NCBI GenBank assembly: GCA_033763315.1
Contig: JANRKS010000016.1
Location: 64,001-128,000, forward strand
DNA: 64,000 bases
DNA from: Deltaproteobacteria bacterium
Lineage (GTDB): Bacteria; Myxococcota_A; Polyangia; Fen-1088
Direction of reading: 5' to 3'
The notes below the pieces were generated by a model. The model was not told the DNA's origin, did not search any database, and saw only the letters and a list, made by a program, of their open reading frames with translations. This document shows, one piece after another, positions 1,114 through 48,650 of this stretch; position 1 is the stretch's first letter; every line of letters starts with the position of its first letter. The position numbers were made by a program, and so were the translations under genes.

Positions 1114-1427
1114 CACTGGCGTTTTCGGCGCCAGCCGCCCAAAAGGTTCGCGCAAAATACCCTCGTCCGCGCCCAGCCCAGTGTCCGCGCGGCGTGAGGG
1201 GACGGCCGATGAAACTTTGGCAAGGGCGGGCAAAAGCGCCCACCCAACGGCGTCATTCTGCGTCGCGGCGGCCAAGAACATCAGGACGGCAAGAGGTAGC
1301 GCCGACGCCCTCCGGGGTCAAGGCCGAGCCCCGAAGTGCCCAGGAATGCTGAGAAAGTGTTGCGCCGCCCGGTTCGCGCGGCGTCCGTTTCTCTGCGCAT
1401 TCGGGCCGCGGCGGCCCGCCTGGTGAG

Positions 1428-3684: not shown

Positions 3685-3810
3685 GTACGAATCTTAAGAC
3701 ACCTTACACAAGGGCCCAAAAACACGTGCTTAGACGCACGCACCTTCTCCCGCTTGGGGGATCGGTACTTTGGCGCGCGGGCTTGAGCTCGGGCGCCAGC
3801 GATTTGACGA

Positions 3811-30123: not shown

Positions 30124-32970
30124 ATGAGTAAAATCGTTATCAAGGGTGCGCGCACCCATAACCTGAAGAACATCGACCTTGAGATCCCACGCGACAAATT
30201 GGTGGTGATCACGGGGCTTTCAGGGTCAGGTAAATCGTCGTTGGCGTTTGATACGATATTCGCCGAGGGGCAACGGCGTTACGTTGAATCACTTTCGGCG
30301 TATGCGCGGCAGTTCTTGGACCAGATGGACAAGCCGGACGTCGATAGCATCGACGGACTTTCACCCGCCATCGCCATCGAGCAAAAGACGGCACCGCGCA
30401 ACCCACGCTCCAGCGTGGGCACCATCACCGAGATCTACGATCACCTGCGCCTGTTGTGGGCACGCGTGGGCAAGATCTATTGCTGGAACTGCGGCACGTT
30501 GATCGCGCCGTTCAGCATTTCGCAAATGGTGGATCAGGTGTTGGCGCTGCCTGCCGGTGCACGATTTTCTGTATTGGCACCCGTGGTACGCAACGAAAAG
30601 GGCGATTTCGCCAAGGCGCTTGCAGGATGGGCGAAAGAAGGCTTCGTGCGCGCGGATGTAGATGGCGAATTGATTGAGCTTTCGGATCCACCGAAACTTG
30701 ATCCACAAGCCGCGCACACGATCGAGATCTACGTGGATCGTCTTGTGCTGAAAGACGGCATTCGCCAGCGCCTGGCAGATTCGATTGAGCTGGCGGCGAA
30801 GCTTTCAGGTGGCCTTGTGAAAGTGGCGCCGCTTGAAGGTGACGATCGCCTATTTTCGGAGCGTTGCGTGTGCCCGAACTGCAACACCACGTATCCCGAG
30901 ATCACGCCCAAGCTATTCTCGTTCAACAGCCCCGCGGGCGCGTGCCCTGCGTGTGATGGCTTGGGCGCGTCGCTGCTGTTCGATCCAGATCTCATCGTGC
31001 GCGATGGCGAGCTTTCCCTGCGCGAAGGTGCGATCGAAGCGTGGGAACGCCGCAACAGCACATATTTTCAACAAATGCTGGCCACGATCTCCGAACACTA
31101 CAAGTTCGATCTGGATACGCCGTGGAACAAGCTGACGTCGAAGGTGCGCAAGGTGATCTTGGAGGGCTCGGGCAAGACTGAGTTCGATTTCGTGGTGGAA
31201 CGCAACGGCCGCACGCAATCGTTCACGCGTCCGTTTGAAGGCGTGTTGCCGAACCTGCAACGCCGATTCGAAGACTACATCCGCCGGCAGCGCGAACAAG
31301 GCCGCGTGGGCGACGAAGACTTCGAGGCGGTGTTCGATGAGTTTCACCGCTATATGCGCGAGGTTCCGTGCACGGAATGCGGCGGCACACGGTTGCGCAA
31401 GGAAGCGCGGCACGTGCGCATCGGCGACAAACGCGTCACAGACGTCACACGGATGACCGTGGGCGAATGTGTGGCCTTTTTTGATGGCATTGAACTAAGC
31501 CGCAAAGATCGCTTGATCGCGGATCGCGTGCTGCGCGAGATCGGCAACCGGCTTAAGTTCTTGGCCTCGGTGGGCGTTGATTACCTGTCGCTTGATCGCA
31601 GCGCGGCCACGTTATCGGGCGGCGAGGCGCAGCGGATCCGTTTGGCCACGCAGATTGGCAGCGGCCTGGTGGGCGTTCTCTATATTCTGGATGAGCCTTC
31701 GATTGGGTTGCACCAACGCGACAATGAACGCTTGTTGCAAACGCTGCTGCGTCTGCGCGATCTGGGCAACACGGTTTTGGTGGTGGAGCACGATGAAGAC
31801 ACGATTCGTGCTTCGGACTGGGTGGTGGATATGGGACCGAAGGCGGGTGAACACGGCGGCCGCGTGGTGGCCGCGGGTACGCCTGAGGCGATCAGTAAAA
31901 ACGAAGCTTCATTGACGGGCGATTACCTTTCGGGTCGCCGGTTCATCGCGATTCCAAAGCGGCGGCGCATCTCGAAGGCGAAGCACCTAAGCTTGGTGGG
32001 CGCGCGGACCCATAACCTGAAGAACATTTCGGTGAAGATTCCGCTAGGATCGTTTACGTGCGTGACGGGTGTTTCTGGGTCGGGCAAAAGCAGCCTGATC
32101 ATCGACACGCTTCTGCCGGCGCTCAAAGCGGCGCTTTATAAATCGAAGCCACCTGCGGTGCCATACGACGGCCTCGAAGGCCTGGTGCACGTGGATCGCG
32201 TGATCGACATTGATCAAAGCCCGATCGGCCGCACGCCGCGTTCGAACCCGGCCACTTACACGGGTTTGTTTGGCTTTATTCGCGAGTTGTTTGCGGAGCT
32301 ACCAGAATCAAAAGCCCGTGGCTATAAGTCGGGGCGCTATTCCTTCAACATCAAAGGCGGCCGCTGCGAAACGTGCCAAGGCGATGGCATCATCCGCATC
32401 GAAATGCACTTTCTGCCCGATGTGTATGTGCAGTGCGATGCGTGCCAAGGCCGCCGCTATAACCGCGAAACGTTGGACATCAAGTACCGCAACGCCTCGA
32501 TCGCAGACGTGCTTGATATGACTGTGGCGCAAGCGTGCCCCTTCCTTGAGAACATTCCGAAGATCAGGCAAAAGCTTGAGACGTTGCGCGAAGTGGGCCT
32601 GGGCTATATCAAGCTTGGCCAGGCGGCCAACACACTCTCGGGCGGCGAGGCCCAGCGCATGAAGCTGGCGAAAGAGCTGGCCAAGAAATCGACGGGCAGC
32701 ACCGTTTACATCTTGGATGAACCCACCACAGGTTTGCATTTGGCCGACATCGATCAACTGCTAGGCGTACTGCAACGTTTGGTGGACGCGGGCAACACGG
32801 TGGTGGTGATCGAACACGATCTGAACGTTATCAAAACGGCGGACTGGGTGATCGACATGGGCCCCGAAGGCGGGCCGAGCGGCGGCCAAGTGGTGGCCGA
32901 GGGGACCCCGGAGGATGTGGCGAAAGTGTCAGCGAGTTTGACGGGGCAGTATTTGAAGCGCGTGTTGTGA
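30124..32970 (+). CDS. uvrA: Excinuclease ABC subunit A
   Basis: Two ABC domains ([32 protein letters not shown] twice) and zinc fingers. Confidence 0.98.
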
Positions 32971-33287: not shown

Positions 33288-33731
33288 GTTGGCCAGACAC
33301 GTAACAAAGCCTGGAAGTTACGGCCATGAGCGGGCCGCGATCCAAATCGCGCTTTCTTTCTAAGCCGCTCAGGCAGAACCACACATCTACGAAGGCCACC
33401 TTGGGCAACGTCTGCTCACTGGCCTAACGGGCGTGTCGCACGCGCGAGCTCGGTACCGGTGAATCGTTGATGGTGTTGTGGCGCCGTCGGGCCAAGCACC
33501 TCTCCTTTCGTTGTGGCTCATGCTCGCAACCCGGGATGTACGCGCGGGCTCAGTAGGCGCTGCTCAGTGGTTGGCGACGGGCAACTGCGACTCGATACTC
33601 AACGACACGAAGGGGCACGCGCCGACGCAGGGTTGCTGCGAGTTGCGGCGCTGGCATATTGTCACCAGGCCACCAACACGACGATCGGAAAAGTACCGCG
33701 GCGTTGTCCCATCAGGGGATTCACCTCCGCT
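33288..33731 (+). other. Gene-less cassette 1 (body)
   Basis: Begins GTTGGCCAG and ends before CTGTCCAAC; homologous to 33851-34294 with frame-breaking indels. Confidence 0.7.
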
Positions 33732-33857
33732 GTCCAACTGATCGTTTCAGCTGACAAAGAGCACAGGCCAACTAAAACCTAGACACGCCCGTGTGGTGCG
33801 AGCCAGAATGCGGTCTTGTGCCTCAGGGCCTTTGCAGCTGAACTGGGCACGTTGTGC
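33732..33857 (+). repeat. attC site 1
   Basis: R'' GTCCAAC, L'' GTTTCAGCTGACAAAG pairing with L' CTTTGCAGCTGAAC (two extra bases), R' GTTGTGC. Confidence 0.88.
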
Positions 33858-34294
33858 AGACACGCGGCTCAGTCTGGGAACAGGCTTGCATGAGCTGGCC
33901 GCGAAACAAATCGCGCGGTCTGTGTCAGTGGCTCAGGCAGAACCACCAAGCTGCGAAGGCTTTCTTGCGCAAGGCGGGTTCACAGGTCTAACGGGGCGTG
34001 CAGGACGCGCGGGCTCGGTACGGGTGCAAGGGCGGTGAAGTGGCAACGCCAGCCGGCCAACAAACGCCCTTGGTGTTGACTCGCCACCGGGCATGCACCA
34101 GTGCACGTTCGAGCTCAGTATGCGGGGGTCAGCGGGCCGCATGTGCCGTCGATGCTGCAAGCTCAACAACAAGAAGGGGCGCGCGGCAACAGGGTATTGC
34201 TGCGCGCAATGGCAGTGGCGCTGTGTGACCCGGCCACCGAGGTCGTGCTCGGGCATGTATCGGACCTCATCGCGCCCGTGTTTGTAGCCCCGCT
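33851..34294 (+). other. Gene-less cassette 2 (body)
   Basis: Begins GTTGTGCAG and ends CTGCACAAC; no credible ORF. Confidence 0.72.
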
Positions 34295-34421
34295 GCACAA
34301 CCGCTCGTTGCATCTGACAAAGCGTGGGCGCCATCTAAAACCTAGACACGTCCGTGGCTTTCCAGCACCATTGGGGTTGTGCACGCTGCTGAGCTTTGCA
34401 GCTGAACTTCACACGTTAGCC
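34295..34421 (+). repeat. attC site 2
   Basis: GCACAAC...CATCTGACAAAG...CTTTGCAGCTGAAC...GTTAGCC. Confidence 0.88.
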
Positions 34422-34432
34422 GGACGAACGAG

Positions 34433-34912
34433 ATGCACGAGATTCAAGTACTGATCGGCGGGAAAGAAACGACGGAGGCGTTTGCGGCAACATGCAGCGA
34501 AGCGCTTCGCCGAGAGCTAACGTCCGAGCTATTTATGATTCCTCTCACCGAGGCGCTGGTTCTCCAAATGACTAGCCAAGCTCTGCGGCTGCCAGACCTA
34601 GAAGATCCTGATGAAGCGAAAGAGCTGGCTAGCGCCCTGCAACCTGTAGTGACGTCACTACTCGATGCAAATTTGGTTGGGCGTCTCGGGGTCGTTCTGA
34701 CTCAGTACTTTGGAGGCTCTGGAAATCAAGCGGCTTTGCTAGTCGAGAATGGAACTGTCAGCCATGGCCCCTTTGTAGGCGAAGGATCGATCAACAGGAT
34801 TCTTGCACGGCTCGGCGTATGCCGCGATGACAAAACCGGGCGCGACGAATTCGCGGTCGTCGGCTTAGACCGATGGCGTTCGAGCGATCAGATCATTGGC
34901 GGCGCCGGCTAA
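34433..34912 (+). CDS. Cassette hypothetical protein (YFGG.G.Q, IN..L..LGV, DEF..VGL..WRS)
   Basis: ORF fills the cassette; stop TAA lies in the R'' box. Confidence 0.85.
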   Translation: MHEIQVLIGGKETTEAFAATCSEALRRELTSELFMIPLTEALVLQMTSQALRLPDLEDPDEAKELASALQPVVTSLLDANLVGRLGVVLTQYFGGSGNQAALLVENGTVSHGPFVGEGSINRILARLGVCRDDKTGRDEFAVVGLDRWRSSDQIIGGAG

Positions 34913-35035
34913 CAGATCGTTCCAGCTGACAGTGCCGCGAGCGTCACTTTGAACCTAGACATGGCAGCGGTGTGCGAGCGACAATGCGGTCTTGGTGCCT
35001 TGTTGGGCACCGCAGCTGAACTTTACACGTTAGCC
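34907..35035 (+). repeat. attC site 3
   Basis: GGCTAAC...CAGCTGAC...GCAGCTGAAC...GTTAGCC. Confidence 0.92.
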
Positions 35036-35047
35036 GGACGGAGAACT

Positions 35048-35893
35048 ATGGACCCAGCTACAGGTCTCACAATTTTAGGAGGAGCCGTTGGATCGGCGAA
35101 GGTGCTCGAGAAGCTGCTTGGTCCAACAGCGGACTATCTTGGCTGCGGGTTCAAGGATTGGACAGAACGCGGATTCAAGAATGTTGGGCGAATTTTCGAA
35201 ATAGCTAAACTTCGCCTCGGCCCGAAGATTGATGACCCCGGAGGAGTTCCGCCGAGAGTGTTGAAGGAAGTTCTCAGCGAGGGGCCCTTCTGCGAGGATG
35301 AACTGTGGGCCGAATACTTTGGAGGGGTTCTAGCCTCGTCGCGCTCCGAAGTTGAGCGCGACGATCGCGGTGCCCGCTTCGCGTCGATAATCAGCCGATT
35401 GAGCACGTACCAAGTTCGTTGCCACTTTGTGCTCTATCGCCTTTTCAAGACGCTCTTTGACGGCGTCGAGGACACAGTGTCAACCGACGACGGACGTCGA
35501 TCCCTAGAAATGTTCGTACCGTTTGCGGCATTCGTGTCCGCTATGGAGCTGACAGGAGCAGAGAAGATCGATATCATTCTCAGCCACACAATAGTTGGGC
35601 TGGCTGGCGAGTCGCTCCTTGACCCCCAATACAAATTTGGTGGTGCCGAGTTCATCAAGACGAACGGTTTTCCGGGTGCGGCCCAGGATGGGATGCTCGT
35701 CCGCCCCTCGACGTTGGGGGCCGAACTCTTCCACTGGGCCCATGGACTCGGCAACGTTCATACCGGTAAATTTCTAGACCCGGCATGTACGTTTCCTTCG
35801 ACGATCATCGTGACTGTAATGCCCGGCGTATGCGCTTCACAGAGGCCGGACCGCAAATTGGATCAGCTGGTTAAGCCAAGTGGGCCCGCATGA
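35048..35893 (+). CDS. Cassette protein, Abi-alpha (DUF4393)-like, 281 aa
   Basis: GGAG then ATG at 35048. VPPRVL..VL.EG..CEDE...EYFGGVLASS...F..II.RLS resembles Abi-alpha proteins (from memory, no search run). Confidence 0.65.
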   Translation: MDPATGLTILGGAVGSAKVLEKLLGPTADYLGCGFKDWTERGFKNVGRIFEIAKLRLGPKIDDPGGVPPRVLKEVLSEGPFCEDELWAEYFGGVLASSRSEVERDDRGARFASIISRLSTYQVRCHFVLYRLFKTLFDGVEDTVSTDDGRRSLEMFVPFAAFVSAMELTGAEKIDIILSHTIVGLAGESLLDPQYKFGGAEFIKTNGFPGAAQDGMLVRPSTLGAELFHWAHGLGNVHTGKFLDPACTFPSTIIVTVMPGVCASQRPDRKLDQLVKPSGPA

Positions 35894-35905
35894 CCGGAAC
35901 GCGCC

Positions 35906-36035
35906 GGCTAACTCATCGTTCAAGTCTGACAGCGCCACGGACGCCATCTTGATCCTAGACACGTTAGTGGCTCGCGATCGACAATGCGGTCTTGCGGCGT
36001 TAGTAGGCGCTGCAGCTTAACTTTACACGTTAGAC
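35906..36035 (+). repeat. attC site 4
   Basis: GGCTAAC...CAAGTCTGACAGCGCC...GGCGCTGCAGCTTAAC...GTTAGAC. Confidence 0.92.
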
Positions 36036-36269
36036 GCACGGAGAGCTATGGACCCAGCAACAGGCCTAACAATTCTTGGTAGCGCAATCGGATCTGCGAA
36101 GGTGCTCGAAAAGTTGCTCGGTCCTACGGCGGATTATCTCGGCGCCGGACTTAAGGATTGGACGGAACGCAGCTTCAAGAATGTCGGCCGTATCGTTGAG
36201 AGAGCTAAGTTTCGGCTTGGCCCAAAGATAGATGAGCCTGGGCTTGACCCGTTTTCGCGGACAGTTGGG

Positions 36270-38993
36270 TTAAGCGGATCGTTTCTTCAAAGAATGTAGC
36301 AGCTCAAACTCGACGGGCGTTCGGTAGTTGATGGAAGAGTGACGCCGACGATAATTGTAGTTCGCGATGAATTGTTTCGCTGACAGTGTGCCAATGGCCG
36401 GCGTTTCGAGCGTGTCCGCATTGTGCATTTCCCGCTTGAGCGTGGCAAAGAAACTTTCTGCGACGGCATTGTCCCAGCAGTCGCCCTTGCGGCTCATACT
36501 GCACTCGATAGCTCCCTCACGTAGTGCCCTGCGGTAAGCATCGGCAGTGTACGTGCTGCCGCGGTCCGAGTGATGTACAAGGCCCGGCCCAGGCCTGCGT
36601 GATTGTATAGCCATTTCAAGAGCTGCGAGGGCAAGGTTGCAGTCCACGGTTTGGCTTGTCGCCCAGCCAACAATCCGCCGCGAAAACAGGTCCAAGATGA
36701 CTGCGAGATAAAGCCATCCCTGGGTTGTGTGTAGATAGGGGTAAGTAGGCCGGGGCATTTCAGCCCCAGCCCCTCTCAGAACCGGACGTGAACCTCTCGG
36801 CTCATCCGGCTCCCATCATCGAACCGCCGGGATAGATCCCACGTTCCCAATGTACGAAGGATTTCGGAGCGACTGCGGCAATTCGCCCAAGCTCCTTAAT
36901 TGCTCGGCGTACGTGCCGAGCGAGGTGCTTGTACTTTCGCCGAAGCCACCGCACAAGGTATTCATTGACGTGCCGCCACAATGGCTTCAACGCCGACGCG
37001 TAGAACCGACCGTAGTAGTTAGCCCATCCACGAAGGATGGGATTAAACATGTTTGAGAGATCGTCCAGGGACTTGTCGCACTTCAGTTGAAGATGCCATC
37101 CGCGAATTTCTCGCCGCATCGCGCGGAGCGCATCACGGCTCACCCCGGGAGAAAAATTCACGTATAGACGGCCATACCTGTCCCGCGATCTTCGCGGGCG
37201 AAATGTATAACCGAGAAACGTGAATTGTATCGTTGGATATGCGCTCTGCCGATTGATGTCTTTGCAGTACGCTATCCGCGTTTTCTCTGGATGCAGTTCG
37301 AGTCCGCATTCCTTTAAGCGCTCTCCGATCATCCGCAACGCAAGCCGCGCCTGCTCTTCGCTCTTGCAGTGGACAACGCCGTCGTCTGCGTATCGGCAAA
37401 GTTGCACGCTTCGCAGCTCTCGGCGCATCCAAATATCAAGCGCGTAATGCAGAAACAGATTCGCAAGCAACGGGCTGACGACACCCCCTTGTGGGGTCCC
37501 TCGTGTGCGCGCCACCTGCGTTCCATCCTCGATCACCATCGGTGCCTTAAGCCATCTCTCGATGTACAAAAGGACCCAAGGTGTCTTGCAATGCTTGCGA
37601 ACGGCCCGGAGAAGCAGTTCGTGATCAATTGTGTCGAATAGGGCTTTGACGTCAAACTCGACGACCCAGTCATATTTCCAACTTCGCCGCCTAACCATTT
37701 TGATCGCATCCAAGGCAGAGCGCCCCGGACGGTACCCAAACGAATTGTCGTCGAAAATCGGCTCGAGCATTGGCTCAAGGACCATCTTGACCGCGGTTTG
37801 TGCGATCCGATCTGCAACCGTTGGTATCCCCAACATCCGCGTTCCACCCGTTCGTTTTGGGATCGACACGCTCTTAACCGGCGGCGGAAAGTAGCTGCCG
37901 GAGATCATGCGGTTCCAAATCTTATACAGGTTGTCACTTAGGTTTCTCTCAAATACTTCGATCGATTCGCCGTCTACCCCGGCAGATCCTCCTTTGGCCT
38001 TCACCGTCTGGAATGCCTTCCAGATCAGTTGTTTGGGAATTTCAAACGGCTTTGTCATGAGCCGACGCTCCTCCTGCTTGCGCAGTTGACGGCGGTGCAT
38101 GACGCGATGACGCGACCCCTTCGCTCCATCACCATTACAGTGACTTCCTCACTACTACGAGTCGCTCCGTCCCTTGGCTGCACATCAGTACTGTCGGCCT
38201 TGCGTTTTGCGCTTGTACCTTTCCCTTTACATTGCAGCCGAAGGTTCCTGCAGTTCAACATAGGAGCCCGAATCGCGCTGGCGCTGTCTCTATGCCGGAC
38301 GCCGCATGGCCAATAGACAGGCTCCCGCCATGCTGATCCTGGGCAACATCAACTCCCAGTTTCGACGTCATTTGGTTATTTCGACAATTGGACGACAGTT
38401 CACTTTTGTTCGCCTTCTTCGATTCACACCTGACGCCTTACGACGCCTTTTCCGCAACGCTCACGACCGGGGCTTTTGACCCAGGCCGCTTGCGGTGGTT
38501 TGCGACCTGCTCCTGTAAGCCGGTCGCGAGGGGCCAGTTAGATTTTTTTTTCTTACATCCCTCATCTCCTACGCTGCTTCTGCAGCACACTGATGTCCGT
38601 GACCCAGGCCCTGTTGGGACCCGCGGCTGTAAAGTCCCTCTGCAGAAGGTTGGGGGCGATAGGGTGCCCGTGTTTGGAATCTGTGGTCGCCTTGAATCGG
38701 CGTCGAGTGAGTGCTTTGAGCCCGGTTTGTCGCATCAATCGTGCGACGCGCTTACGTGCGACCCGTTGTCCGCTCGCCTTAAGGTCCGCGTGAATTCTAG
38801 GGCTTCCGTAGTTGTAACCGCTGGCCACATGCAGCGCATGAATGCGTCGCGCGAGTTCGGCATCACCTTTTGAGTGACGTGATTCTTTGCGCTGCACGCT
38901 CGCATAAAAGCCACTCGTCGAAACGCCCAGAAGCCTACAAAGCGCCGCCACGGGAAAGGCCACCCTCTGCTCTTGGATGAATGCAAACTTCAT
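36270..38993 (-). CDS. IS3 OrfB DDE transposase in two exons (38993-38591 and 36739-36270; 290 aa spliced)
   Basis: Removing the intron gives WVTDI-TYLHTTQGWLYLAVILD...HHSDRGS...CWDNAVAESFF. Confidence 0.9.
36740..38590 (-). mobile_element. Group II intron (RmInt1-like, class D/IIB), 1851 nt
   Basis: 5' end GTGTGCTGCAGA; domain V GAGCCGGATGAGCCGAGAGGTTCACGTCCGGTTC; domain VI ending CCTACTTACC; EBS1 loop UGAUGUU (38345-51) complementary to the 5' exon end GACAUCA. Confidence 0.93.
36802..38058 (-). CDS. ltrA: Group II intron reverse transcriptase/maturase lacking endonuclease domain (418 aa)
   Basis: LGIPTVADR, SFGYRP, GTPQGGVVSPLLAN, RYADD and domain X GWANYY; no HNH. Confidence 0.95.
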   Translation of the reverse strand: MTKPFEIPKQLIWKAFQTVKAKGGSAGVDGESIEVFERNLSDNLYKIWNRMISGSYFPPPVKSVSIPKRTGGTRMLGIPTVADRIAQTAVKMVLEPMLEPIFDDNSFGYRPGRSALDAIKMVRRRSWKYDWVVEFDVKALFDTIDHELLLRAVRKHCKTPWVLLYIERWLKAPMVIEDGTQVARTRGTPQGGVVSPLLANLFLHYALDIWMRRELRSVQLCRYADDGVVHCKSEEQARLALRMIGERLKECGLELHPEKTRIAYCKDINRQSAYPTIQFTFLGYTFRPRRSRDRYGRLYVNFSPGVSRDALRAMRREIRGWHLQLKCDKSLDDLSNMFNPILRGWANYYGRFYASALKPLWRHVNEYLVRWLRRKYKHLARHVRRAIKELGRIAAVAPKSFVHWERGIYPGGSMMGAG

Positions 38994-39298
38994 GCATTCT
39001 CCTTCGCGAAGAAGGTGGCCGCACGTTTTAAAATCTCACGCTCCATGCGCAGTGTCTTGACCTCGCGGCGCAGGTGCGAAAGCTCTTCCTTCTCTGATGC
39101 TGTTAAGGCAACTGGTGTGTCCGCGCCCTGAGCGCCGCCGCTTTGCCTAAGCCACTTGCGTATGAGGCTGTCGGCGACATCGAGTTCTCGGGATGCCTCC
39201 GGAACCGTTTTGGCCCCGCTCTGTATCAATTGCACCACCTCCGCCTTGAACTGCCGCCCATGCGTGCGCCGCGGTTTTACTGCCTTCGATTTCCTCAT
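38990..39298 (-). CDS. IS3 OrfA (HTH plus leucine zipper)
   Basis: FKAEVV...IRKW...LRREVKTLRMEREILKRAATFFAKE; ATGA overlap with orfB. Confidence 0.93.
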   Translation of the reverse strand: MRKSKAVKPRRTHGRQFKAEVVQLIQSGAKTVPEASRELDVADSLIRKWLRQSGGAQGADTPVALTASEKEELSHLRREVKTLRMEREILKRAATFFAKENA

Positions 39299-39988
39299 AT
39301 GGATACCTTTCTACGCTCTTTTCTCTGAGCGTGGGTGTCCACGAAAGCGGGTCAACCTCAGCCTGGGGGAATCCCTCCTCGAGTTGTCCACAAACTTCTT
39401 ACGGAAGGTCCTTTCATCGAGGACGAGGTTGGGGCTGAGTATTTCGGGGGAGTGCTCGCGTCCTCTAGGTCGGAATCATTTCGAGACGACCGCGCCAATT
39501 ATTACCTAGGGCAGATTAGCCGACTTTCATGCTACCAGTTGCGGGCACACTACGTCTTCTACGCCTGCTTCCAGCGCATTTATCTCGGGATCAAGCGGGA
39601 CCTTGGAAACTCGGATCACACAAGTCACGCTTACGTTTTCATTTCCATGTCTGCATTCTCAACCGCGATGAAATTCACCGAGAAAGAGGATCCCGCCAAA
39701 ATCATCGGCCATATCCTGTTTGGTCTCCACCGCGAAGGACTGATTTCGGCGTATGCGTCCGGAAACAAAGAAACAGTGGTTGGCATTGCAAGCACCGCAG
39801 CTTCTGATGGTGTCGCCTTTGTGTTAACGCCTGGAGGTGTTGAACTCTTTCTGTGGGCACACGGGCTGCAAGACTCGGATCTGAACGACATCATCACTGC
39901 CGATTCCCCTTTCGAACCGTTCGACGACGTACAGCTCCCGCCGCCCACTGAGTACTACGGTCCGAGCGGGCCGAATTCGCGAGGCGGC

Positions 39989-40117
39989 GCCTAACTATGC
40001 GTTCAAGCTGCCAAAGCTGCGGAGGTCACCTTGAACCTAGACACGGCAACGCTATGCCAGCAAAAATGCGGTCTTGCGCGTTTGTGAGCTTTGCAGCTTA
40101 ACGGCGCCACGTTAGTC
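39989..40117 (+). repeat. attC site 5
   Basis: GCCTAAC...CAAGCTGCCAAAGCT...AGCTTTGCAGCTTAAC...GTTAGTC. Confidence 0.92.
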
Positions 40118-40131
40118 AGACACGGAAGCAA

Positions 40132-40734
40132 ATGCACCCAGACACGAGAGAAGTTGCTGAGCATATGCGGGAATTTGGACTCAATGTGATCGCGCGGGCG
40201 ATTTACGATGTGACCTTTGCGGAGTTCAGTAGGCCATTCGCCCACGCTTTGGCTGTGATACATGCCGCACACGGTGCCGAGATTGTTCTGAAGGCGCGGA
40301 TTGCTGAGGAGCACCCGCTTCTCATATTCAAGAAACTTCCACAGTCATCTTCAACGGAAGAATCACTGACGATTGCGGAGCTTTTTGAGTTTGGCCGAAG
40401 TGTTGACTACGACGACCTTCCGGAACTGCTTTGGGCGACCACAGGCATTCGAATCGAAAGAAGGGACAGGTACCAGGAGTTCGGCCGCTTGCGAAACAAG
40501 ATCATGCATTTTGCCGTTCCGGAGATGGATCATTCTCACGAGGTACTGTCATTCTGTATTGAGGTCCTTGAGCCATTGGTTTTTGCGTTCTGGCAAGAGT
40601 CTGCGGTGCCACTTGCGGCCCACTGGGACGAAGTGATTCTGTCGGATGGCTATCTCGACGACCAGCTAACCGCCCACGTAATTGACGTTCCGCTGCACGT
40701 TCGACAAATCCTCGACGAAGCCAAAGAATCGTAG
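40132..40734 (+). CDS. Cassette protein with HEPN-type RxxxxH motif
   Basis: HAAHGAEIVLKARI...HPLLIF and LRNKIMHF. Confidence 0.75.
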   Translation: MHPDTREVAEHMREFGLNVIARAIYDVTFAEFSRPFAHALAVIHAAHGAEIVLKARIAEEHPLLIFKKLPQSSSTEESLTIAELFEFGRSVDYDDLPELLWATTGIRIERRDRYQEFGRLRNKIMHFAVPEMDHSHEVLSFCIEVLEPLVFAFWQESAVPLAAHWDEVILSDGYLDDQLTAHVIDVPLHVRQILDEAKES

Positions 40735-40744
40735 GGCGTCTGCT

Positions 40745-40874
40745 GGCTAACCGGGCCTTGAAGACAGACAAAGCGCGGAGCACACTTTGAACCTACACAT
40801 GGCAGCGTGATGCGAGCGACAATGGTGTCTCGGCCATTGATGAGCTTTGCGGGTTAACGCCAAGCACGTTAGCC
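40745..40874 (+). repeat. attC site 6
   Basis: GGCTAAC...GACAAAGC...GCTTTGCGGGTTAAC...GTTAGCC. Confidence 0.85.
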
Positions 40875-40901
40875 GTACTGTGGCCTCTGTCAGGAGCTGA
40901 T

Positions 40902-41444
40902 TTGTCGGGAGGTAAGAAAAGCACCCGCTTGGATGTCATTGCGGCGATCCTCGCCGTCAATCTGGCCGGGAGTTGTCACCACGTACGGACGTCGTCTGCT
41001 TCATGTCACGACCGGCAGCGAAATCATGTTGGTGGGAAGGTCGAAGATATGGAGAGCAATACACGTTCAGCATGCATCGACGTGCGCGAGAACGATGACG
41101 TCGGACCCGTCCTCGATGCAATTGACGAACCAAGCCGCGAGCCTCAGACAGAGGTCGAGGTCTGCTGGGAATCACGCTGCGAGTGCATCCTCGCACCCAA
41201 ACGGATAAAGGAGGACGCAGCACAAAAAGTCTTCAGTGTCGTTCGCAGCAGGACCAAAGATAGAGTTGTAGTGATCCTTGGCCGATTCGGATTGAGAGAA
41301 GGACGACCTTGTCCACTTGGTGAACTAGATGTCTTGACGGTGACGCCCGACGGAACCAAGGGGTTCACCTACACCTTGGTAAAGAGCGATGGCGAATGGA
41401 AGCTCCATTCCATAGATGCGTTGTTCGCGAAAACAGACGGCTAA
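40902..41444 (+). CDS. Cassette hypothetical lipoprotein
   Basis: AGGAG before TTG; LAGSC lipobox; stop in the R'' box. Confidence 0.7.
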   Translation: MSGGKKSTRLDVIAAILAVNLAGSCHHVRTSSASCHDRQRNHVGGKVEDMESNTRSACIDVRENDDVGPVLDAIDEPSREPQTEVEVCWESRCECILAPKRIKEDAAQKVFSVVRSRTKDRVVVILGRFGLREGRPCPLGELDVLTVTPDGTKGFTYTLVKSDGEWKLHSIDALFAKTDG

Positions 41445-41572
41445 CCCAGGCTTGAAGCTGCCGAAGCCCACTGCCTCGGTGGAGAACCTGAACGCACGGA
41501 GGCTCTTGAGGCGCTGAGGGGGTTGTGAGACTCTTGCGAAGGGCTTCGCAGCTTAAGCCGAGCACGTTATGC
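41439..41572 (+). repeat. attC site 7 (divergent central region)
   Basis: GGCTAAC...GAAGCTGCCGAAGCCC...GGGCTTCGCAGCTTAA...GTTATGC. Confidence 0.88.
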
Positions 41573-41597
41573 GTACAGTGCGTGTTTCGTTCGAAGG

Positions 41598-41628
41598 TTG
41601 CTAGCTGTGTATATTGAGGTAATATACA
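41598..41628 (+). promoter_or_regulatory. Putative leaderless TA promoter with operator palindrome
   Basis: TTGCTA-N16-TAATAT 6 nt before GTG at 41632; inverted repeat TGTATATT-N5-AATATACA overlaps the -10. Confidence 0.6.
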
Positions 41629-41631
41629 GCA

Positions 41632-41949
41632 GTGGCGAGGTTTCCGGATGAGCTTACGGCGTGTACAGGATTTGAATGGGATGAGGGCAATGCGGACAAG
41701 AATTGGGAGTTGCACCAGGTCTCGCGCGGCGAGGCCGAGGATGCGTTCTTCAATCGGCCCTTTGTCATCGCTCCCGATTTCCGACACTCCAACAAGGAGC
41801 CTCGGTACGCGGCATTGGGGTTCACTTCTGCTGGTCGCAAGCTGACGGTTATCTTCACCGTGCGACGAACGCTGATCCGGATCATTTCGGTGCGAGACAT
41901 GAGCAGACAAGAAAGGAGGGTCTATGACCAAGCGAGCAGCAAAAAGTAA
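41632..41949 (+). CDS. brnT: BrnT family toxin
   Basis: FEWDEGNA.KNW..H.V...EAE..F, HS..E.R...LG and IRIISVRDMSRQER motifs. Confidence 0.9.
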   Translation: MARFPDELTACTGFEWDEGNADKNWELHQVSRGEAEDAFFNRPFVIAPDFRHSNKEPRYAALGFTSAGRKLTVIFTVRRTLIRIISVRDMSRQERRVYDQASSKK

Positions 41950-42220
41950 GAGACCGATCCCAATCTTCGCGAACGAAGATGACGAACGACAGTTTTGGTC
42001 AAAAAATGATGCGAGCGCCTTCTTTGATTGGGAACACTCAGTTCAAGTTGCGATGCCGGACCTGAAACCCACCACGGCATCGATTTCCTTACGCCTGCCT
42101 GTTTCCATGCTTGAAGAACTCAAGGCATTGGCCAACAAACGCGACGTACCATATCAATCGTTGATGAAGGTGTATCTGTCTCAGCAGATCATGCGCGAGC
42201 GGAACAAGAAGGCATCATGA
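41924..42220 (+). CDS. BrnA/CopG-type antitoxin
   Basis: IP.F.NED.ER.FW and ISLRLP..ML..LK..A.KRDVPYQSLMK motifs. Confidence 0.88.
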   Translation: MTKRAAKSKRPIPIFANEDDERQFWSKNDASAFFDWEHSVQVAMPDLKPTTASISLRLPVSMLEELKALANKRDVPYQSLMKVYLSQQIMRERNKKAS

Positions 42221-42221
42221 C

Positions 42222-42336
42222 GCATAACAAGGCGTTCAAGGCTGACAGTGCCGCGAGCATCACTTTGAACCTAGGCATGGTAGTGGGATGCGGGCGACAA
42301 TGCGGTTTTGGTGCCGCACTGGGCTTCGCAAGTTAA
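42222..42336 (+). repeat. attC site 8 (R' end lost)
   Basis: GCATAAC...CAAGGCTGAC...CGCAAGTTAA, then fused to coding sequence. Confidence 0.78.
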
Positions 42337-42447
42337 GGTTACCGCGCCATTCGGCTCAGTGATGCATACAGGGCCATTTACATCGAGCGAAGCGACGGGG
42401 CGGTCGAGGCCGTCTACGTTGAAGAGGTGAACAAGCATGACTACTAA
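42337..42447 (+). pseudogene. 3' remnant of a RelE/HigB-like toxin
   Basis: GYRAIRLSDAYRAIYIERSDGAVEAVYVEEVNKHDY*; preceded by an in-frame TAA; overlaps the antitoxin start. Confidence 0.72.
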
Positions 42448-42763
42448 GCGGGCAAAGCGAGCTCAAGGGAACGCGTCAGGATACCTCGTGAAGCTTATGA
42501 AAGGGCCGCTGACTCTTGGCGACGCGCTGTCCGCCATCCGCGAGGCCGAAGAAATGAGCCTCTCCGAGTTCGCAGCGGAGCTTGGCGTGTCGCGTTCCCA
42601 TCTTTGTGACATCGAACAGGGTCGCAGAGCTGTCAGTCCAGAGCGCGCCGCCCGGTTAGCTCAGGCACTCAAACAGCATGAAGCTCAGTTCGTGCGCCTT
42701 GCTTTGCAGGACCAAGTGCGTGCGGCGGGCTTGAACTTGAAGGTGGATGTCCACGCCGCATGA
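42437..42763 (+). CDS. Xre/HigA-like HTH antitoxin
   Basis: IRE..EMS..EFA.ELGVSRSHLCDIEQGRR.VS.ERA motif. Confidence 0.85.
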   Translation: MTTKRAKRAQGNASGYLVKLMKGPLTLGDALSAIREAEEMSLSEFAAELGVSRSHLCDIEQGRRAVSPERAARLAQALKQHEAQFVRLALQDQVRAAGLNLKVDVHAA

Positions 42764-42783
42764 CCGTCTGAGGAGGTGCGTCC

Positions 42784-42918
42784 GCCGAACCCGGCGTTGC
42801 ACCCGCCAAACCCGCGCGAGTCAAGGCAAAACCTAGACACGCCAGCGGCCGGTATGCACCATAGGGGATGTGGACTCCACCGATATGGCTTTGCATGTGA
42901 ACGCCACACACGTTAGCC
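42784..42918 (+). repeat. attC site 9
   Basis: GCCGAAC...AACCTAGACAC...CTTTGCATGTGAAC...GTTAGCC. Confidence 0.8.
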
Positions 42919-42929
42919 AGTCATAACAC

Positions 42930-43223
42930 ATGAAACCGGCACCGCTACAGATAGGAGGGGCCAGGGTAGTGGCATACACAGCCATCGACCATCGGCATCG
43001 TGCCACTGGACGTACGAAACAGATCGTCGACGGCGTGCAGGTCGGCCCAGCCGCAGGTCTTGCGATCTGCCAATACGAGAACGACGTGGCCTTCTACCTA
43101 TTCGGGTGCGACGTCAATTGGAAGAGCGTTACCGACACCTGGCATCAAAGTATCGGCGATGCGAGGGACCAAGCTGAGTTCGAGTATGCAGGATCCTCTC
43201 AGACATGGGTTGATGTCGGCTAA
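42930..43223 (+). CDS. Cassette hypothetical protein (97 aa)
   Basis: LAICQY....YLFGCD.NW...DTWH....A..QAEFEY; stop in GGCTAAC. Confidence 0.8.
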   Translation: MKPAPLQIGGARVVAYTAIDHRHRATGRTKQIVDGVQVGPAAGLAICQYENDVAFYLFGCDVNWKSVTDTWHQSIGDARDQAEFEYAGSSQTWVDVG

Positions 43224-43675
43224 CTCATTGTGGGGTGTCTTGATCGCTGGCGACTGTCCCGTGTGTCCGGTTTGGCGCCGCTGTTGCAGTCGCGTCGGTG
43301 CAGACTGGTAAACTGTTCTTCGCTTGTCCTGCTTGTGGGTGCGCCTGGATAAACCGCCGGACGGTTCTATCGATTCGGTGGACCCACCCTTTCGCTTTGC
43401 ACCTGCAGGCTTTCGGCTTGCAGTGCCCGGAGATTTCGAGCGCGCGAACCTGCTATTGCTGATTGTGCGCACTGAGCCCTTTGGCGGAATCCATGATGAT
43501 TTTGAAAGAGTTGACGGCTTCGACCGCGGCGGCCGCTGTATGTTGACCTCCTAAGCCGACAAACAAAGCCCGCAGACGCCTCCGCAAACCTAGACAGTCA
43601 AGATCTGTACAGGCACCATAGGTGTCGTGGACGTTCGCAATATGCGCTTTGCAGGTTAACGCCAGCACGTTATCC
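43218..43675 (+). repeat. attC site 10, split by about 320 bp of unrelated DNA
   Basis: GGCTAACTCATTG at 43218; remainder TAAGCCGACAAA...AACCTAGACA...CTTTGCAGGTTAAC...GTTATCC at about 43551-43675. Confidence 0.65.
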
Positions 43676-43684
43676 AGACTGAAC

Positions 43685-44338
43685 ATGAAGTCACTTTCTG
43701 ATGGTCTAGAAGACGACGTTCCGAGCCCGATCGACTTGCGGGATCCGTCGGACGCCAACGCTTGGGTTGCCGCGTCTGATCGCACGCGTCCATGGCGGGC
43801 TGAGGTTCGGATGGCGATCGCGGAGCTGTTGCGCGGCACCAATCCGGCGCCGCGCCGCGTGCTGGAGCTCGGCTCTGGGCCCGGCCTGCTGGCAGACGCG
43901 ATTTTGAAAGTCTGCGACTTGGATAACTACACGCTATTCGATTTCTCGCTTCCGATGCTCGACATGAGTCGGAAGAAGCTTGCTAGTCACCCATCGGCCG
44001 AGTTCGTTTGTGGTGATTTCAAGCATAAGGATTGGACCGCATCGCTCGTTCCCTCTTTTGACGTTGTTGTTGCGATGCAGGCTGTCCACGAAATCCGCCA
44101 CAAGCGTCACGTGCCTGAACTGTACCGACAAAGCTGTAGTGTTCTGCGACCAGGTGGTTTGCTGGTGGTGTGCGATCACACGCCGCCGGCGCCGAACAGT
44201 CCTTTGGCTAGGCTACACTCTACCGAAGACGAGCAACTTGCCGCGTTTGCCGCCGCTGGTTTCGTGGACGTCAGAACGCATCTCAATTTAAAAGGGTTGT
44301 ATGTTTGTACGGGGCTAAGGCCATACGACGCTGGCTAA
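43685..44338 (+). CDS. Class I SAM-dependent methyltransferase (cassette)
   Basis: VLELGSGPG, DFS..ML and LRPGG motifs; ATG at 43685 follows the R' site. Confidence 0.88.
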   Translation: MKSLSDGLEDDVPSPIDLRDPSDANAWVAASDRTRPWRAEVRMAIAELLRGTNPAPRRVLELGSGPGLLADAILKVCDLDNYTLFDFSLPMLDMSRKKLASHPSAEFVCGDFKHKDWTASLVPSFDVVVAMQAVHEIRHKRHVPELYRQSCSVLRPGGLLVVCDHTPPAPNSPLARLHSTEDEQLAAFAAAGFVDVRTHLNLKGLYVCTGLRPYDAG

Positions 44339-44455
44339 CCATACTTTGCCAATGACAAAGTATGGAGGTCTTGAAGCTAGACATGGCAGCATGATGCCGG
44401 CACCATCTGGTTATGGCGGTCAGTGAGCTTTGCAGCTGAACGTCACAAGTTAGCC
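44333..44455 (+). repeat. attC site 11
   Basis: GGCTAAC...GACAAAG...CTTTGCAGCTGAAC...GTTAGCC. Confidence 0.82.
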
Positions 44456-44469
44456 AAACTGGCCACATA

Positions 44470-44550
44470 TGAGGTTTCGAATACCCTTACTCGCCGCCGC
44501 CTGTGCTGTTGTTCGGGCTGTATGCCACCGTCATGGGGCGCGGGAGCTCT
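44470..44550 (+). pseudogene. 5' fragment of a second copy of the alpha/beta hydrolase cassette
   Basis: Near-identical to 48651-48733 (CTCGCCGCCGCCTGTGCTGTTGTT-CGGGCTGTATGCCACCGTCATGGGGCGCGGG) with a 1-nt deletion, then truncated. Confidence 0.8.
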
Positions 44551-44578
44551 GGACAGCACGGGCAGGCTGGTATCTCTG

Positions 44579-46114
44579 CTACGGCGTTGCCCGCCCGTAA
44601 AGGCTGGGCAAGAGACGTACGGCCTCGATCTGTCCGTGCAAAAGCGGGTCTTGGAACACGCACCGTGCCTCATCGAGCTGAGGGCACAGGGGTGGCACGA
44701 TGACGTCTCGCAACTCGCTGATGAGCTCGTTCGTCATTGGCCGGCCTGCGCCTTGCGTATGTCGAGCATGAATAAAACGCGAGAGCAGCAAGGGAGTAAT
44801 CCAGGACGTGGTGGTCTGAGTGATCGGAAAAATGTCGACCCCGTATTCATCCACTTGGAGCAGTGGGGTGTCGTTGTATGGAAATGGTCTTTGCGCCAGC
44901 ACGCCGCTGTTTAGATAAACGTCCACGTTTGATCGTGCAGGCCACGCTGAATCGACTGGGAAAGTGCCCCGTCCCGAAGGGTCGAGCCCGGAGGCCAAAG
45001 CCGTAAAGTAGCCGGCGCGCATTCGATTTGAGTACTGCGGCGCTGGCCAATCATAGGGAAAGGATTCTCTGTCGCTGGCATTGATCGCAGCATTCGCCGC
45101 AAAGACGCCTGGCGTACCGAAGAGGCTTGTCATGATGGGTTCGTACGCTCCCAGCCGTGCGTCCAGGACGTCGGTCCCCGCCAAAGGGACACTGCAGTGC
45201 CGCTGCCAATCCGATTGCACGCTCGCCCTCGTCTGCCCCGCGCTGAAGTTTACGAAGTGCACTCCTAGTTCCTTCATCACGCGGCGAAGATCGTCCGCCA
45301 CCCGCCGGGCAAGCGTGCGCAGGCGAACCGTTGCCTCGGGATCGCCAGAGGCGCAGAAGTCGGTTGGGGCAAGCTTCGCTAGACTGATCTGATCCACCAA
45401 CACCAGCCCGTGGTGAGGGTTCGCTTCGACCAACATCGAAAGCACCTGGCTGCCATGTCCTGTGGCGTCCGCCCCGTGCCGTCCAAAGGCGTTGACGATC
45501 GGCTCGCGTAACGAACCTAGGCTCTTCGCTGAAATAAACTGGGCCGTAGCGAAGCGGGTAAGAACCTCGTGCAAGGCAACGGGAACCCGCCACACCGCCC
45601 GCACAGCCTCAAAACGTCCTGACGGCGAGGCACGCAGGAATGCCTTGATCCGATTCTGGTAGCGAATGGCAAACGTCGGCAGAGTGGAAAAGTCGTCGAC
45701 CACGAGGATGGCCTCGCGGGTGTCTTGAGCAATGGAGAAGCGCGTCGGGGAATACTCGAAGTCGCCCCAGTCACACATCGAAACATCGGCACGGCGAAAG
45801 CACGTCTCTGCGCTAAGACGTTCAATGGCTCCAGCAATCGCCGTACCAAGCGAATCGGGCGGGGGCCCTCCGTCTGCGTTCGCGTCGACTCCCGAGCCAT
45901 CAGGCAGCCACAGCCTTCCGTCGATCTCTTCGCCTCCGTCAGCGCGGTTCAGCGCATCGAGCGCCGCGTCTACGACACCGGGCCCGGTCTGATCGTCGCA
46001 AGCACAGACGCCGATTGCCGCCGCAAAGCCGAAGCTCAGAAGCCATTTGGTAGCTGGGACAAGCTTGGCCGTTTGCGAAGGGGCTGTTTTTCGCTGCTGG
46101 TAAATGTGGCCCAT
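44579..46114 (-). CDS. Lipoprotein with divergent subtilisin (S8)-like motifs
   Basis: VCAC lipobox; ILVVDD, GHGSQV, VNFSAG, NAAIN and TTSWITP in subtilase order. Confidence 0.65.
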   Translation of the reverse strand: MGHIYQQRKTAPSQTAKLVPATKWLLSFGFAAAIGVCACDDQTGPGVVDAALDALNRADGGEEIDGRLWLPDGSGVDANADGGPPPDSLGTAIAGAIERLSAETCFRRADVSMCDWGDFEYSPTRFSIAQDTREAILVVDDFSTLPTFAIRYQNRIKAFLRASPSGRFEAVRAVWRVPVALHEVLTRFATAQFISAKSLGSLREPIVNAFGRHGADATGHGSQVLSMLVEANPHHGLVLVDQISLAKLAPTDFCASGDPEATVRLRTLARRVADDLRRVMKELGVHFVNFSAGQTRASVQSDWQRHCSVPLAGTDVLDARLGAYEPIMTSLFGTPGVFAANAAINASDRESFPYDWPAPQYSNRMRAGYFTALASGLDPSGRGTFPVDSAWPARSNVDVYLNSGVLAQRPFPYNDTPLLQVDEYGVDIFPITQTTTSWITPLLLSRFIHARHTQGAGRPMTNELISELRDVIVPPLCPQLDEARCVFQDPLLHGQIEAVRLLPSLYGRATP

Positions 46115-46466
46115 CGTTTCCCCTGCTTAAGTTTGTTATTCGATGAATATAGTGGCCATCACACGCACCGGGAGTCACTCGCGTCGTTTCCGTAGCCCAA
46201 GGGGGTGCGCGCAGATTGCAGCGACGGTTGTCGGTTCACGAGTGCGGGCAGCGAGGCTCTCCAAATTCGGCGATGGCAGTTGCTACAACCGCGGTTGTTC
46301 CATGTGCTCGCGAATTTCCGAGGCTGCGAACCCGTTGTGTCCCTTCCGCGATGGCGGCGCTGATCGTTTCTGCATGTTCATGCAAGCCAAGATTTCGGGT
46401 ATTCTTGCGTAACCCACGCCTCAAGGTTGAGCCGGTCCTTCCATTGTGACTAGCCGGACTGATACG

Positions 46467-46820
46467 ATGACAAATCCTATGGCCCAAAGCTGGTTGGATG
46501 CTGCGGAGGACCTCGGTATTCGCGTTGTGCACCCCTTTCGGTTCACCACCGCGTCGGCTGTCGCGGCAGAGACAGTCGGTGTCTTCTTACCTGACTTCGG
46601 ATCTGAAGATGGCATGCTTCTAACGTGCCGCTTCGATCCCGACGAAATGTCCGAACTCGTTGACGACACCCCCTATCGCACTTCAGGTCTCAGTCCTCGC
46701 TACTACGAACCTTACTCGCGCACTCGGTTCATACAGACACTTTCCGATTGGGGGTGGTTCGGGCCCGAAGGCCAACGGCCGCATTGGTACGATCCAGATT
46801 GGCGCAACAGATCAGGTTAG
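46467..46820 (+). CDS. Cassette hypothetical protein
   Basis: Follows degenerate R' GACTAGCCGGAC; WL.AA.DLGI.V..PF...F..TL.DWGWFG...P.WY. Confidence 0.75.
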   Translation: MTNPMAQSWLDAAEDLGIRVVHPFRFTTASAVAAETVGVFLPDFGSEDGMLLTCRFDPDEMSELVDDTPYRTSGLSPRYYEPYSRTRFIQTLSDWGWFGPEGQRPHWYDPDWRNRSG

Positions 46821-46842
46821 AGCGAGATGCCGCTTTGACGCT

Positions 46843-46978
46843 GACGAACTGATCATTCTGATCATTGCAGCTGACAATGCATGGAGGTCACTTTGAACAT
46901 AGACACGGGGGTGGTATGCGGGCGACAATCTGACCTTAAGGCTTGCTGGGCTTTGCGGCTGAATTTTTCATGTTGGGC
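46843..46978 (+). repeat. attC site 12
   Basis: GACGAAC, CTGATCATT duplicated, CAGCTGAC...CTTTGCGGCTGAA...GTTGGGC. Confidence 0.78.
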
Positions 46979-47053
46979 AGACAATCGAGATGCTCGAAAC
47001 AGTCGATCAGATTGAGTCGTCGCGACTTCAGAAGCCGGTGGACGTATTACACG

Positions 47054-47144
47054 GTGACATGGCAGTGATGTGCAAGCGACAATGCGGTCTTGGTGCCTTA
47101 GGCGTGCACCTCTGGGCACTGTAGCTGAACTTCACACGTTAGCC
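47054..47144 (+). repeat. Right half of an attC site (cassette internally deleted)
   Basis: GACATGGCAG...GACAATGCGGTCTTGGTGCC...GTAGCTGAACTTCACACGTTAGCC. Confidence 0.8.
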
Positions 47145-47160
47145 GGACTCGAGGATCATT

Positions 47161-48413: not shown

Positions 48414-48446
48414 ATCTGCCGCGGCAGTTCACAAGCCATTGGCGCC

Positions 48447-48579
48447 GCCCATGCAGGCTTGCAGCTGCCAAAGCCGGGAGCGCTTTCGAAAAATCAGATG
48501 CACCTGTGGTACTTGAAGCGCCAAAGCGGTTGTGCAACCCTGCCGAAGGGCGTTGCAGATGAGGCCGCACACGTTGGAC
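48447..48579 (+). repeat. Degenerate attC site
   Basis: GCAGCTGCCAAAGCC...GTTGCAGATGA...CACACGTTGGAC; R'' mutated. Confidence 0.6.
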
Positions 48580-48650
48580 GGATTAACAGATGCACGAGAT
48601 TCAGGCGCTGATCGGTCTGAACTTTGCGCGTTGTCCCGACAGGCCACCAC

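Follow-up and report, generated by a model that had tools for sequence, protein, structure and literature searches.

A conserved two-block motif with promoter-like geometry in the centre of the long attC sites of a Fen-1088 cassette array

The window analyzed here is a 64,000-nucleotide stretch of contig JANRKS010000016.1 (assembly GCA_033763315.1; Deltaproteobacteria bacterium, Fen-1088), part of contig C16 of a 7.6 Mb genome with 61% G+C. It contains an integron cassette array, and our subject is a two-block motif that lies in the centre of most of the attC recombination sites of that array. R1, a covariance model trained on 28 attC sites of the source genome (G000), finds 14 attC sites of ∼140 nt each between positions 33724 and 48587, all on the + strand. 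The sites stand in tandem, 14 per 15 kb, with one short cassette between neighbors, and the cassettes' open reading frames (ORFs) are mostly co-oriented with them. Most of these ORFs have no family match; three match a helix-turn-helix protein, a methyltransferase, and a GNAT acetyltransferase. The ORF starts 6–24 nt past the R' box in 7 of the 12 listed cassette intervals, which leaves no space for a promoter of the cassette's own. Neither intI nor the cassette promoter Pc was found upstream of the array in the window; uvrA (30124–32970) sits there instead. The integron integrase of this genome is encoded on contig C27 (TIGR02249, 441.6 bits against a cut-off of 265), where it adjoins three attCs of the same family. 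Because an integrase of its own is absent, the window array is an attC cluster without a platform. In total, the genome holds 34 such attCs, on contigs C16, C27, C32, C39, C40, C1, and C23, mostly at the ends of contigs.

The covarying R and L helices identify the window sites as genuine attCs. Helix 1, formed by R'' and R' (RYYYAAC/GTTRRRY, for example GGCTAAC ... GTTAGCC), is 77.7% paired, with 4 of its 7 pairs changed on both sides. In helix 2, formed by L'' and L', pairing reaches 89.1%, both partners have changed at 7 of 13 pairs, and extrahelical columns occur within L''; alignment columns 39–144, for instance, give AU 11 times and CG 11 times. The pairing of both the R and the L boxes collapses once the partner columns are slid.

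Twelve of the 14 sites carry two hexamers in their centre, at exactly the places and with exactly the letters that a sequence-only reading of the window had given (Table 1). Direct reading also confirms the three variant first hexamers, TACACA, TAGGCA, and GTGACA (attC 6, 8, and 13), each followed by N18-GACAAT, and the second hexamer fits NANNAT in all 12 sites. The pattern TAGACA-N17/18-NANNNT has nine + strand matches in the window, compared with 0.70 ± 0.90 in shuffled sequence, and none of 100 shuffles reaches nine. Of the 14 hits in a separate scan with a consensus promoter (shuffles 7.4 ± 3.0), six are N18 sites. As had been claimed, the motif is no part of the attC palindrome; it sits between L'' and L', outside the covarying R and L helices. 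Two of the 14 sites (attC 7 and 14) are without it, and three of the sites that bear it (attC 8, 10, and 13) are truncated, the break in attC 13 falling directly upstream of its first hexamer. Since the copies share ancestry, they do not amount to 12 independent events.

Table 1. The 14 attC sites of the array in window coordinates, with their R1 scores and central hexamers
Site	Coordinates	Strand	R1 score (bits)	First hexamer	Spacer	Second hexamer	Remarks
attC 1	33724..33865	+	116.3	TAGACA 33780-33785	N18	CAGAAT 33804-33809	
attC 2	34287..34429	+	128.9	TAGACA 34343-34348	N17	CACCAT 34366-34371	
attC 3	34899..35043	+	145.3	TAGACA 34956-34961	N18	GACAAT 34980-34985	next ORF from 35048
attC 4	35898..36043	+	130.9	TAGACA 35956-35961	N18	GACAAT 35980-35985	
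attC 5	39981..40125	+	132.9	TAGACA 40038-40043	N18	AAAAAT 40062-40067	
attC 6	40737..40882	+	119.2	TACACA 40794-40799	N18	GACAAT 40818-40823	
attC 7	41431..41580	+	80.5				divergent subfamily, no motif (TGAACG ... GCTGAG aligned)
attC 8	42214..42360	+	76.4	TAGGCA 42272-42277	N18	GACAAT 42296-42301	no R'
attC 9	42776..42926	+	94.7	TAGACA 42834-42839	N17	CACCAT 42857-42862	
attC 10	43537..43683	+	64.8	TAGACA 43591-43596	N17	CACCAT 43614-43619	R''/L'' degenerate
attC 11	44325..44463	+	95.5	TAGACA 44378-44383	N17	CACCAT 44401-44406	
attC 12	46843..46986	+	103.8	TAGACA 46900-46905	N18	GACAAT 46924-46929	
attC 13	47014..47152	+	43.6	GTGACA 47054-47059	N18	GACAAT 47078-47083	5' half absent
attC 14	48439..48587	+	72.2				divergent subfamily, no motif

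The long attC family to which these sites belong is narrowly distributed. R1 matches at E ≤ 0.001 occur in 32 of 61 relatives; within the taxonomic family, 9 of 89 genomes match at E ≤ 1e-10, and the strong matches come for the most part from one genus. Most genera of that family have attCs of ∼78 nt in which a plain GC hairpin joins the L boxes. The long form is found in G000 and in G001 and G002 of the same genus, with a few copies in G014, G026, and G081. A metagenome scan with a 15-letter pattern returned at least 118 matching stretches, from which 80 loci were kept; six of the 80 hold attC arrays of the long family, with 24 R1 hits, many of them lacking the exact pattern, and the rest are chance matches. 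No long-family attC was detected by nhmmer in 80 loci around IntI homologues (≤64% identical, from many phyla). Pooling gave 113 long attCs, 97 of them nonredundant at 90% identity, and 75 of these 97 keep at least 9 of the 11 letters of GAACCTAGACA, the conserved unit on the left. These 75 block-bearing attCs come from five genomes and six metagenome contigs, and in 70 of them NANNNT follows at N17 (21 sites) or N18 (49 sites), while NANNNT is rare at other offsets. The remaining five have CGCCAT, CGCTAT, CTTAAT, CTTAAA/TTAAAT, and CGACAT at the place of the second hexamer. Long attCs of two other genera have related central sequences with different −10-like motifs, which are displaced by a few nucleotides relative to the genus of the window: TGGTAG plus three letters plus T in most of the seven long attCs of G026 (L137–L141, L098) and GTGTATTATC in both long attCs of G081 (L145, L146).

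Conservation within the family is concentrated in two blocks. Across an unselected set of 78 attCs, the columns of the 11-mer carry 1.1–1.8 bits and those of the spacer 0.1–1.3 bits (mean 0.69). Splitting the sites by spacer class takes out a 1-nt register shift, and we express conservation within the classes as the mismatch rate to the class consensus. In the N17 class (n = 21), the rates are 0.387 for the spacer, 0.056 for the second hexamer, and 0.381 for the next 10 nt, with all 7 hexamer mismatches (7/126) at a single position. In the N18 class (n = 49), they are 0.271, 0.082, and 0.165, respectively. Over the four hexamer positions that played no part in choosing the sites, the mismatches number 7/84 (N17) and 24/196 (N18). 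The second hexamer varies at positions 1, 3, and 4 (GACAAT, CACCAT, CACAAT, CACTAT, AACAAT, GATAAT, and others) and keeps A2, A5, and T6. What all classes share is thus GAACCTAGACA, followed by 16 variable nucleotides without change of length and then by GC(G)ACNAT. These data bear out the sequence-only reading in its observation of fixed spacing around a variable spacer, since both blocks vary much less than the spacer of constant length. Three of its other statements survive in part. The first hexamer is present as described, but the unit that is conserved is the 11-mer. The hexamers are kept above the spacer in both classes, but the next 10 nt of the N18 class are conserved as well. The invariance of −11A and −7T holds in all 12 window sites, but across the family it is reduced to 70 of the 75 block-bearing attCs, and a further 22 of the 97 have no block.

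This constraint on the motif is without a structural explanation in terms of covariation. With DNA parameters on both strands of 50 sites, no helices but R and L have a mean pair probability above 0.25, and the hexamer region is about half unpaired in the averaged folds. The best candidate for a central helix, CCTAGAC/GTCTTGG, has 75% pairing, a value equaled in 112 of 500 shuffles. A mutual-information scan of the attC centre returned the signal of subfamilies only, with no covariation of the left block with L'' or the right arm, and RNAalifold on 10 sites gave just 7 weak pairs, the minimum free energy folds varying from site to site. A possible small spacer hairpin, CAYG...CRTG, was noticed by eye. 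A single-strand hairpin promoter of the Frpo kind is not supported, with no helix over the hexamers above a pair probability of 0.25 on either strand and no covariation. In the window's genus, ∼70 nt without a consistent fold stand in place of the short GC hairpin of related genera.

We propose that the housekeeping RNA polymerase recognizes the module, in its double-stranded form, as a weak promoter facing out of the attC. The sigma70 consensus is TTGACA-N17(±1)-TATAAT, in which −11A and −7T weigh most. The first block ends in a hexamer that matches the −35 consensus at five of six positions (TAGACA against TTGACA; nearly all copies have A at position 2, and TTG occurs in none), the second hexamer has −11A, −8A, and −7T, and the spacer of 17 (21/70) or 18 (49/70) nt is within 17 ± 1 nt. 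Both orientation and geometry fit a sigma70-type promoter pointing at the next cassette. The textbook consensus can be applied to this genome because its rRNA promoters are canonical: three in tandem, TTGACA-N16-TAAAGT with A-rich upstream tracts, precede the 16S rRNA gene on contig C16 (L144:1620–2140, − strand). Transcripts would begin ∼7 nt past the second hexamer and ∼40 nt ahead of R', so that they would hold the 3' arm of the attC only and would enter the next cassette, whose ORF usually starts 6–24 nt past R'. The proposal accounts for the bipartite form, the 17–18 nt spacing, the retention of A−11, A−8, and T−7, the orientation, and the compactness of the promoterless cassettes.

Three degenerate or truncated copies bear on this proposal. 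A solitary degenerate attC lies outside any array at ∼133.1 kb of contig C23 (L013:2099–2245, − strand). It keeps the block at 10 of 11 letters along with GACAAT, and its L' box and the GTT of R' have decayed by point changes. This remnant is situated between two co-oriented ORFs, ∼25–45 nt before the start of the second, which presumably encodes a lipoprotein-like protein; no locus orthologous to it was found in G001, G002, G014, or G026. Two truncated copies begin at the first hexamer, namely, attC 13 of the window, whose GTGACA matches the consensus at five of six positions, and C40:3852–3888, which retains just the first hexamer to slightly past the second. As anecdotes, the remnant and the truncated copies favor a role other than recombination.

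A number of observations weigh against the proposal. The match to the consensus is weak, at 8–9 of 12 positions, with TTG never present and T at −12 in 0 of 70 copies (where G, C, or A stands instead), and the 18-nt spacer of 49 of the 70 copies compares with 16 nt in the rRNA promoters. Matches of equal quality (first hexamer ≥5/6, NANNNT ≥3/6, N17–18) number 1720 per 15.27 million positions, or a chance of ∼0.016 per 145 nt per strand; this rarity by chance favors the proposal, but 1129 of the 1720 fall within crude gene calls, and the enrichment outside genes is only 1.7-fold, a rough figure given that these calls span just 80% of the genome. With so small an enrichment, likeness of sequence alone predicts little. 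Conservation of the second hexamer in the unselected 78 attCs (mean 0.85 bits) does not exceed that of the 10 nt behind it (0.96). The class sets were chosen by the block, and the mismatch sets also by A2 and T6, so that these positions are fixed by that choice, and the 70 copies represent perhaps five or six lineages rather than 70 independent samples. Several conserved bases are foreign to the promoter consensus, including GAACC before the first hexamer (A 50/50, C 49/50), the GC that precedes the second hexamer and the C in position 3 of it (46/50), GG at −4/−3, and, in the N18 class, GCGGTCTTG after the second hexamer. Finally, the 22 of 97 long attCs without the block form divergent subfamilies in which AAGATG, TGGATG, TGAACG, or, in G026, TGTACA is aligned to the first hexamer and the second is absent too. 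The G026 attCs retain homologous letters (GAACCTGTACA ... GACATGG) but have lost G from the first hexamer and T from the second, and one G001 subfamily reads TAGACA-N17-CGCCAT, without −11A. With about a quarter of the long family lacking the motif, the general array design once suggested for it is not universal.

On balance, we put the probability that the attC module is a functional outward-facing promoter at roughly 45%. From anatomy, differential conservation, spacing, and orientation, which are observed directly, we infer polymerase binding and transcription. Strongly conserved bases fall outside the promoter consensus, so that a promoter alone does not suffice as an explanation; even so, a weak outward sigma70-type promoter is the best single one. 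The wider idea that this lineage has rebuilt its attC loop as a portable promoter, by which each cassette would supply its downstream neighbor, and itself when circular, is also possible, but we hold it to be doubtful.

We also considered that the two blocks might form a recombination or control site, that is, serve the integrase as an accessory site, bind a DNA-binding protein of the host, or tune folding and extrusion, with the likeness to a promoter incidental. The conserved 11-mer, a 17-mer in the commonest class, is longer than a promoter hexamer and includes nonconsensus bases; of 20 hits to its 10-mer in the genome, 18 fall in attCs, and the two truncated copies break exactly at the block. 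Moreover, the left block is paralogous to the L'-spacer-R' end of the attC in which it lies (TGAACCTAGACATGGCAG compared with TGAACCTTAACACGTTAG), with a profile score of 15.5 against 8.6 ± 1.5 and only 2 of 1000 column permutations reaching 15.5. In this paralogue, however, the part resembling the R' core has decayed and the part resembling the spacer is invariant, the opposite of what integrase binding would lead one to expect, and simple binding of integrase at the left block is therefore disfavored. The likeness of the right block to L'' is not significant (p = 0.24) and covariation between the left block and L'' is absent, so a nested or twin attC is retained only as a possible origin of the module. 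The same lack of covariation, with L'' and with the right arm, speaks against a role in recombination, as does the C23 remnant, which lost its recombination boxes and kept the central blocks. We know of no factor that would act at such a site. The length of the variable terminal structure is known to govern recombination frequency (PMC8946536), which speaks for such a site. Taken together, we judge a recombination or control site to be unlikely.

A module with no present function is, in our estimation, slightly less probable still. Here the long attCs would have been copied from a few templates of the genus's cassette-forming process, and the promoter likeness would be chance. The family does look young and narrow (9 of 89 genomes at E ≤ 1e-10, mainly one genus), there are few attC subtypes and mutual information mirrors these only, subfamilies without the block share arrays with those that bear it, and the expected chance match per family consensus, ∼0.016–0.03, is non-negligible when many windows are scanned. 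Simple descent nevertheless has difficulty with the unevenness of conservation in the same copies, in which spacer columns of ∼0.05–0.4 bits neighbor block columns of 1.5–2 bits and the mismatch rates of block and spacer are 5- to 20-fold apart within classes. In addition, the length of the spacer is constant, with indels falling after the right block, and the block is common to subtypes that are just ∼55–60% alike elsewhere (a count on the alignment).

It is improbable that the module is instead a regulated promoter or operator, with expression made conditional by a sigma factor that is alternative or paralogous, or by a transcription factor bound to GAACCTAGACA. In favor, GAACC at −40 to −36 and GC at −14/−13 extend beyond the sigma70 hexamers, and the genome has three long RpoD-like sigma genes (open frames of 545–643 aa on contigs C19, C9, and C3) with no RpoS above the family cut-off. 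Against it, a by-eye comparison gave no fit to the sigma54, sigma32, extracytoplasmic function (ECF), or LexA consensus, and no candidate regulator was identified. A box for integration host factor (IHF) likewise gave no fit in a by-eye comparison with the consensus.

In the standard model, cassettes are promoterless, expression drops with distance from Pc, and large chromosomal arrays and integrase-less attC clusters are mostly silent stores. An outward promoter in each attC would make expression independent of array position and of the platform, and a cluster without integrase or Pc would still be a chain of live transcription units, which would help to explain why integrase-less clusters persist. 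The attC would also acquire another role, exerted as double-stranded DNA, that would put a constraint on its "variable" part. As the C23 remnant suggests, the module could outlive decayed recombination boxes as a gene promoter, in which case integrons would spread promoters genome-wide. The sites are thought to be recognized by structure alone; should the promoter proposal fail, a conserved bipartite element would point to a new sequence-specific player at attCs.

The array region has several other features. Within 36270–39298 on the − strand lies a group II intron (Rfam RF01999 at 38428–38559 and RF00029 at 36740–36814), with a reverse transcriptase ORF at 36802–38100. It interrupts a gene that we take to be that of an IS3-like transposase, with orfB split into 36270–36758 and 38562–38993 and orfA at 38990–39298. 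This IS3-like element sits in a cassette whose 5' end (36048–36299) is paralogous to the 281-aa ORF at 35048–35893 but truncated. Two neighboring cassettes of ∼430 bp without a convincing ORF (33325–33495, which precedes the first attC of the array, and 33889–34060) are 70–77% identical (repeat families D9 and D16); they have no Rfam match at the gathering threshold and may represent an RNA or cassettes without a gene. Behind attC 11 and attC 14, the cassettes open with 48 nt that are 88% identical (44466–44513 and 48648–48695; family D17), which suggests paralogous N-termini. On contig C27 (positions 1–5411; L001/L008), the integrase gene is co-oriented with its three attCs rather than divergent, and between the gene and these attCs lie a second tyrosine-recombinase ORF of 309 aa and an apparent IS91-type transposase fragment; the layout is that of either a "reverse" integron or a disrupted platform.

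How does the module compare with known sources of cassette expression? The closest in task is Pc, which is single, lies in or near intI, and expresses promoterless cassettes with an effect that falls with distance. The attC module has the same direction, a presumed sigma70 type, and the same task, but it is repeated per cassette in an array with no intI upstream. Published systems are compared below on the basis of excerpts from the papers cited. In Vibrio sp. DAT722, a sigma70-type promoter bridges the attC between cassettes 20 and 21 (Michael & Labbate 2010, PMC2945992); like the module, it overlaps an attC, serves the downstream cassette, and belongs to a large chromosomal array. That case, however, is single, cassette-specific, and spans the recombination junction, whereas the module lies in the attC centre and in most attCs of the family. 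Separately from the module, the L'-R' spacer of our attCs (TTCACA or TTTACA) is itself −35-like, and at 47131 GATCAT follows 17 nt on; this pair (47131–47159) reaches into the next cassette and would be of the "bridging" kind reported in DAT722.

Group IIC-attC introns carry outward-oriented promoters (Leon & Roy 2010, PMC3001079) and thus resemble the module as attC-associated elements that give the next cassette a promoter, but there the promoter is intron-borne. A link to such introns was rejected here, the window's group II intron being within the IS3-like transposase gene and not in an attC. The VCR-type (Vibrio cholerae repeat) attCs of sedentary chromosomal integrons are ∼120–140 nt long, alike within a lineage, and have a long variable terminal structure; the excerpt puts their likeness down to descent and recombination and does not mention a central promoter (PMC8876359), and we set them against the module by description only. 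Gene-less promoter cassettes are described from Vibrionaceae superintegrons (Blanco et al. 2024, PMC11014356), as are ORF-less cassettes from Treponema (PMC6557892). These are array-internal, sense-oriented, and switch on downstream promoterless cassettes, as the module would, but their promoters lie in the body of dedicated cassettes rather than within the attC itself; the control cassette C7, its own attC included, had no promoter activity (PMC11014356). The module was accordingly not assigned to the class of cassette-borne promoters, as it sits between L'' and L', whereas such promoters precede the cassette's attC and lie in the cassette body. In the literature excerpts searched, no description was found of a promoter common to the attCs of one family. 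Array-internal promoters are established, and an attC-internal one that is family-wide, as these sequences would suggest, would be a new aspect if confirmed.

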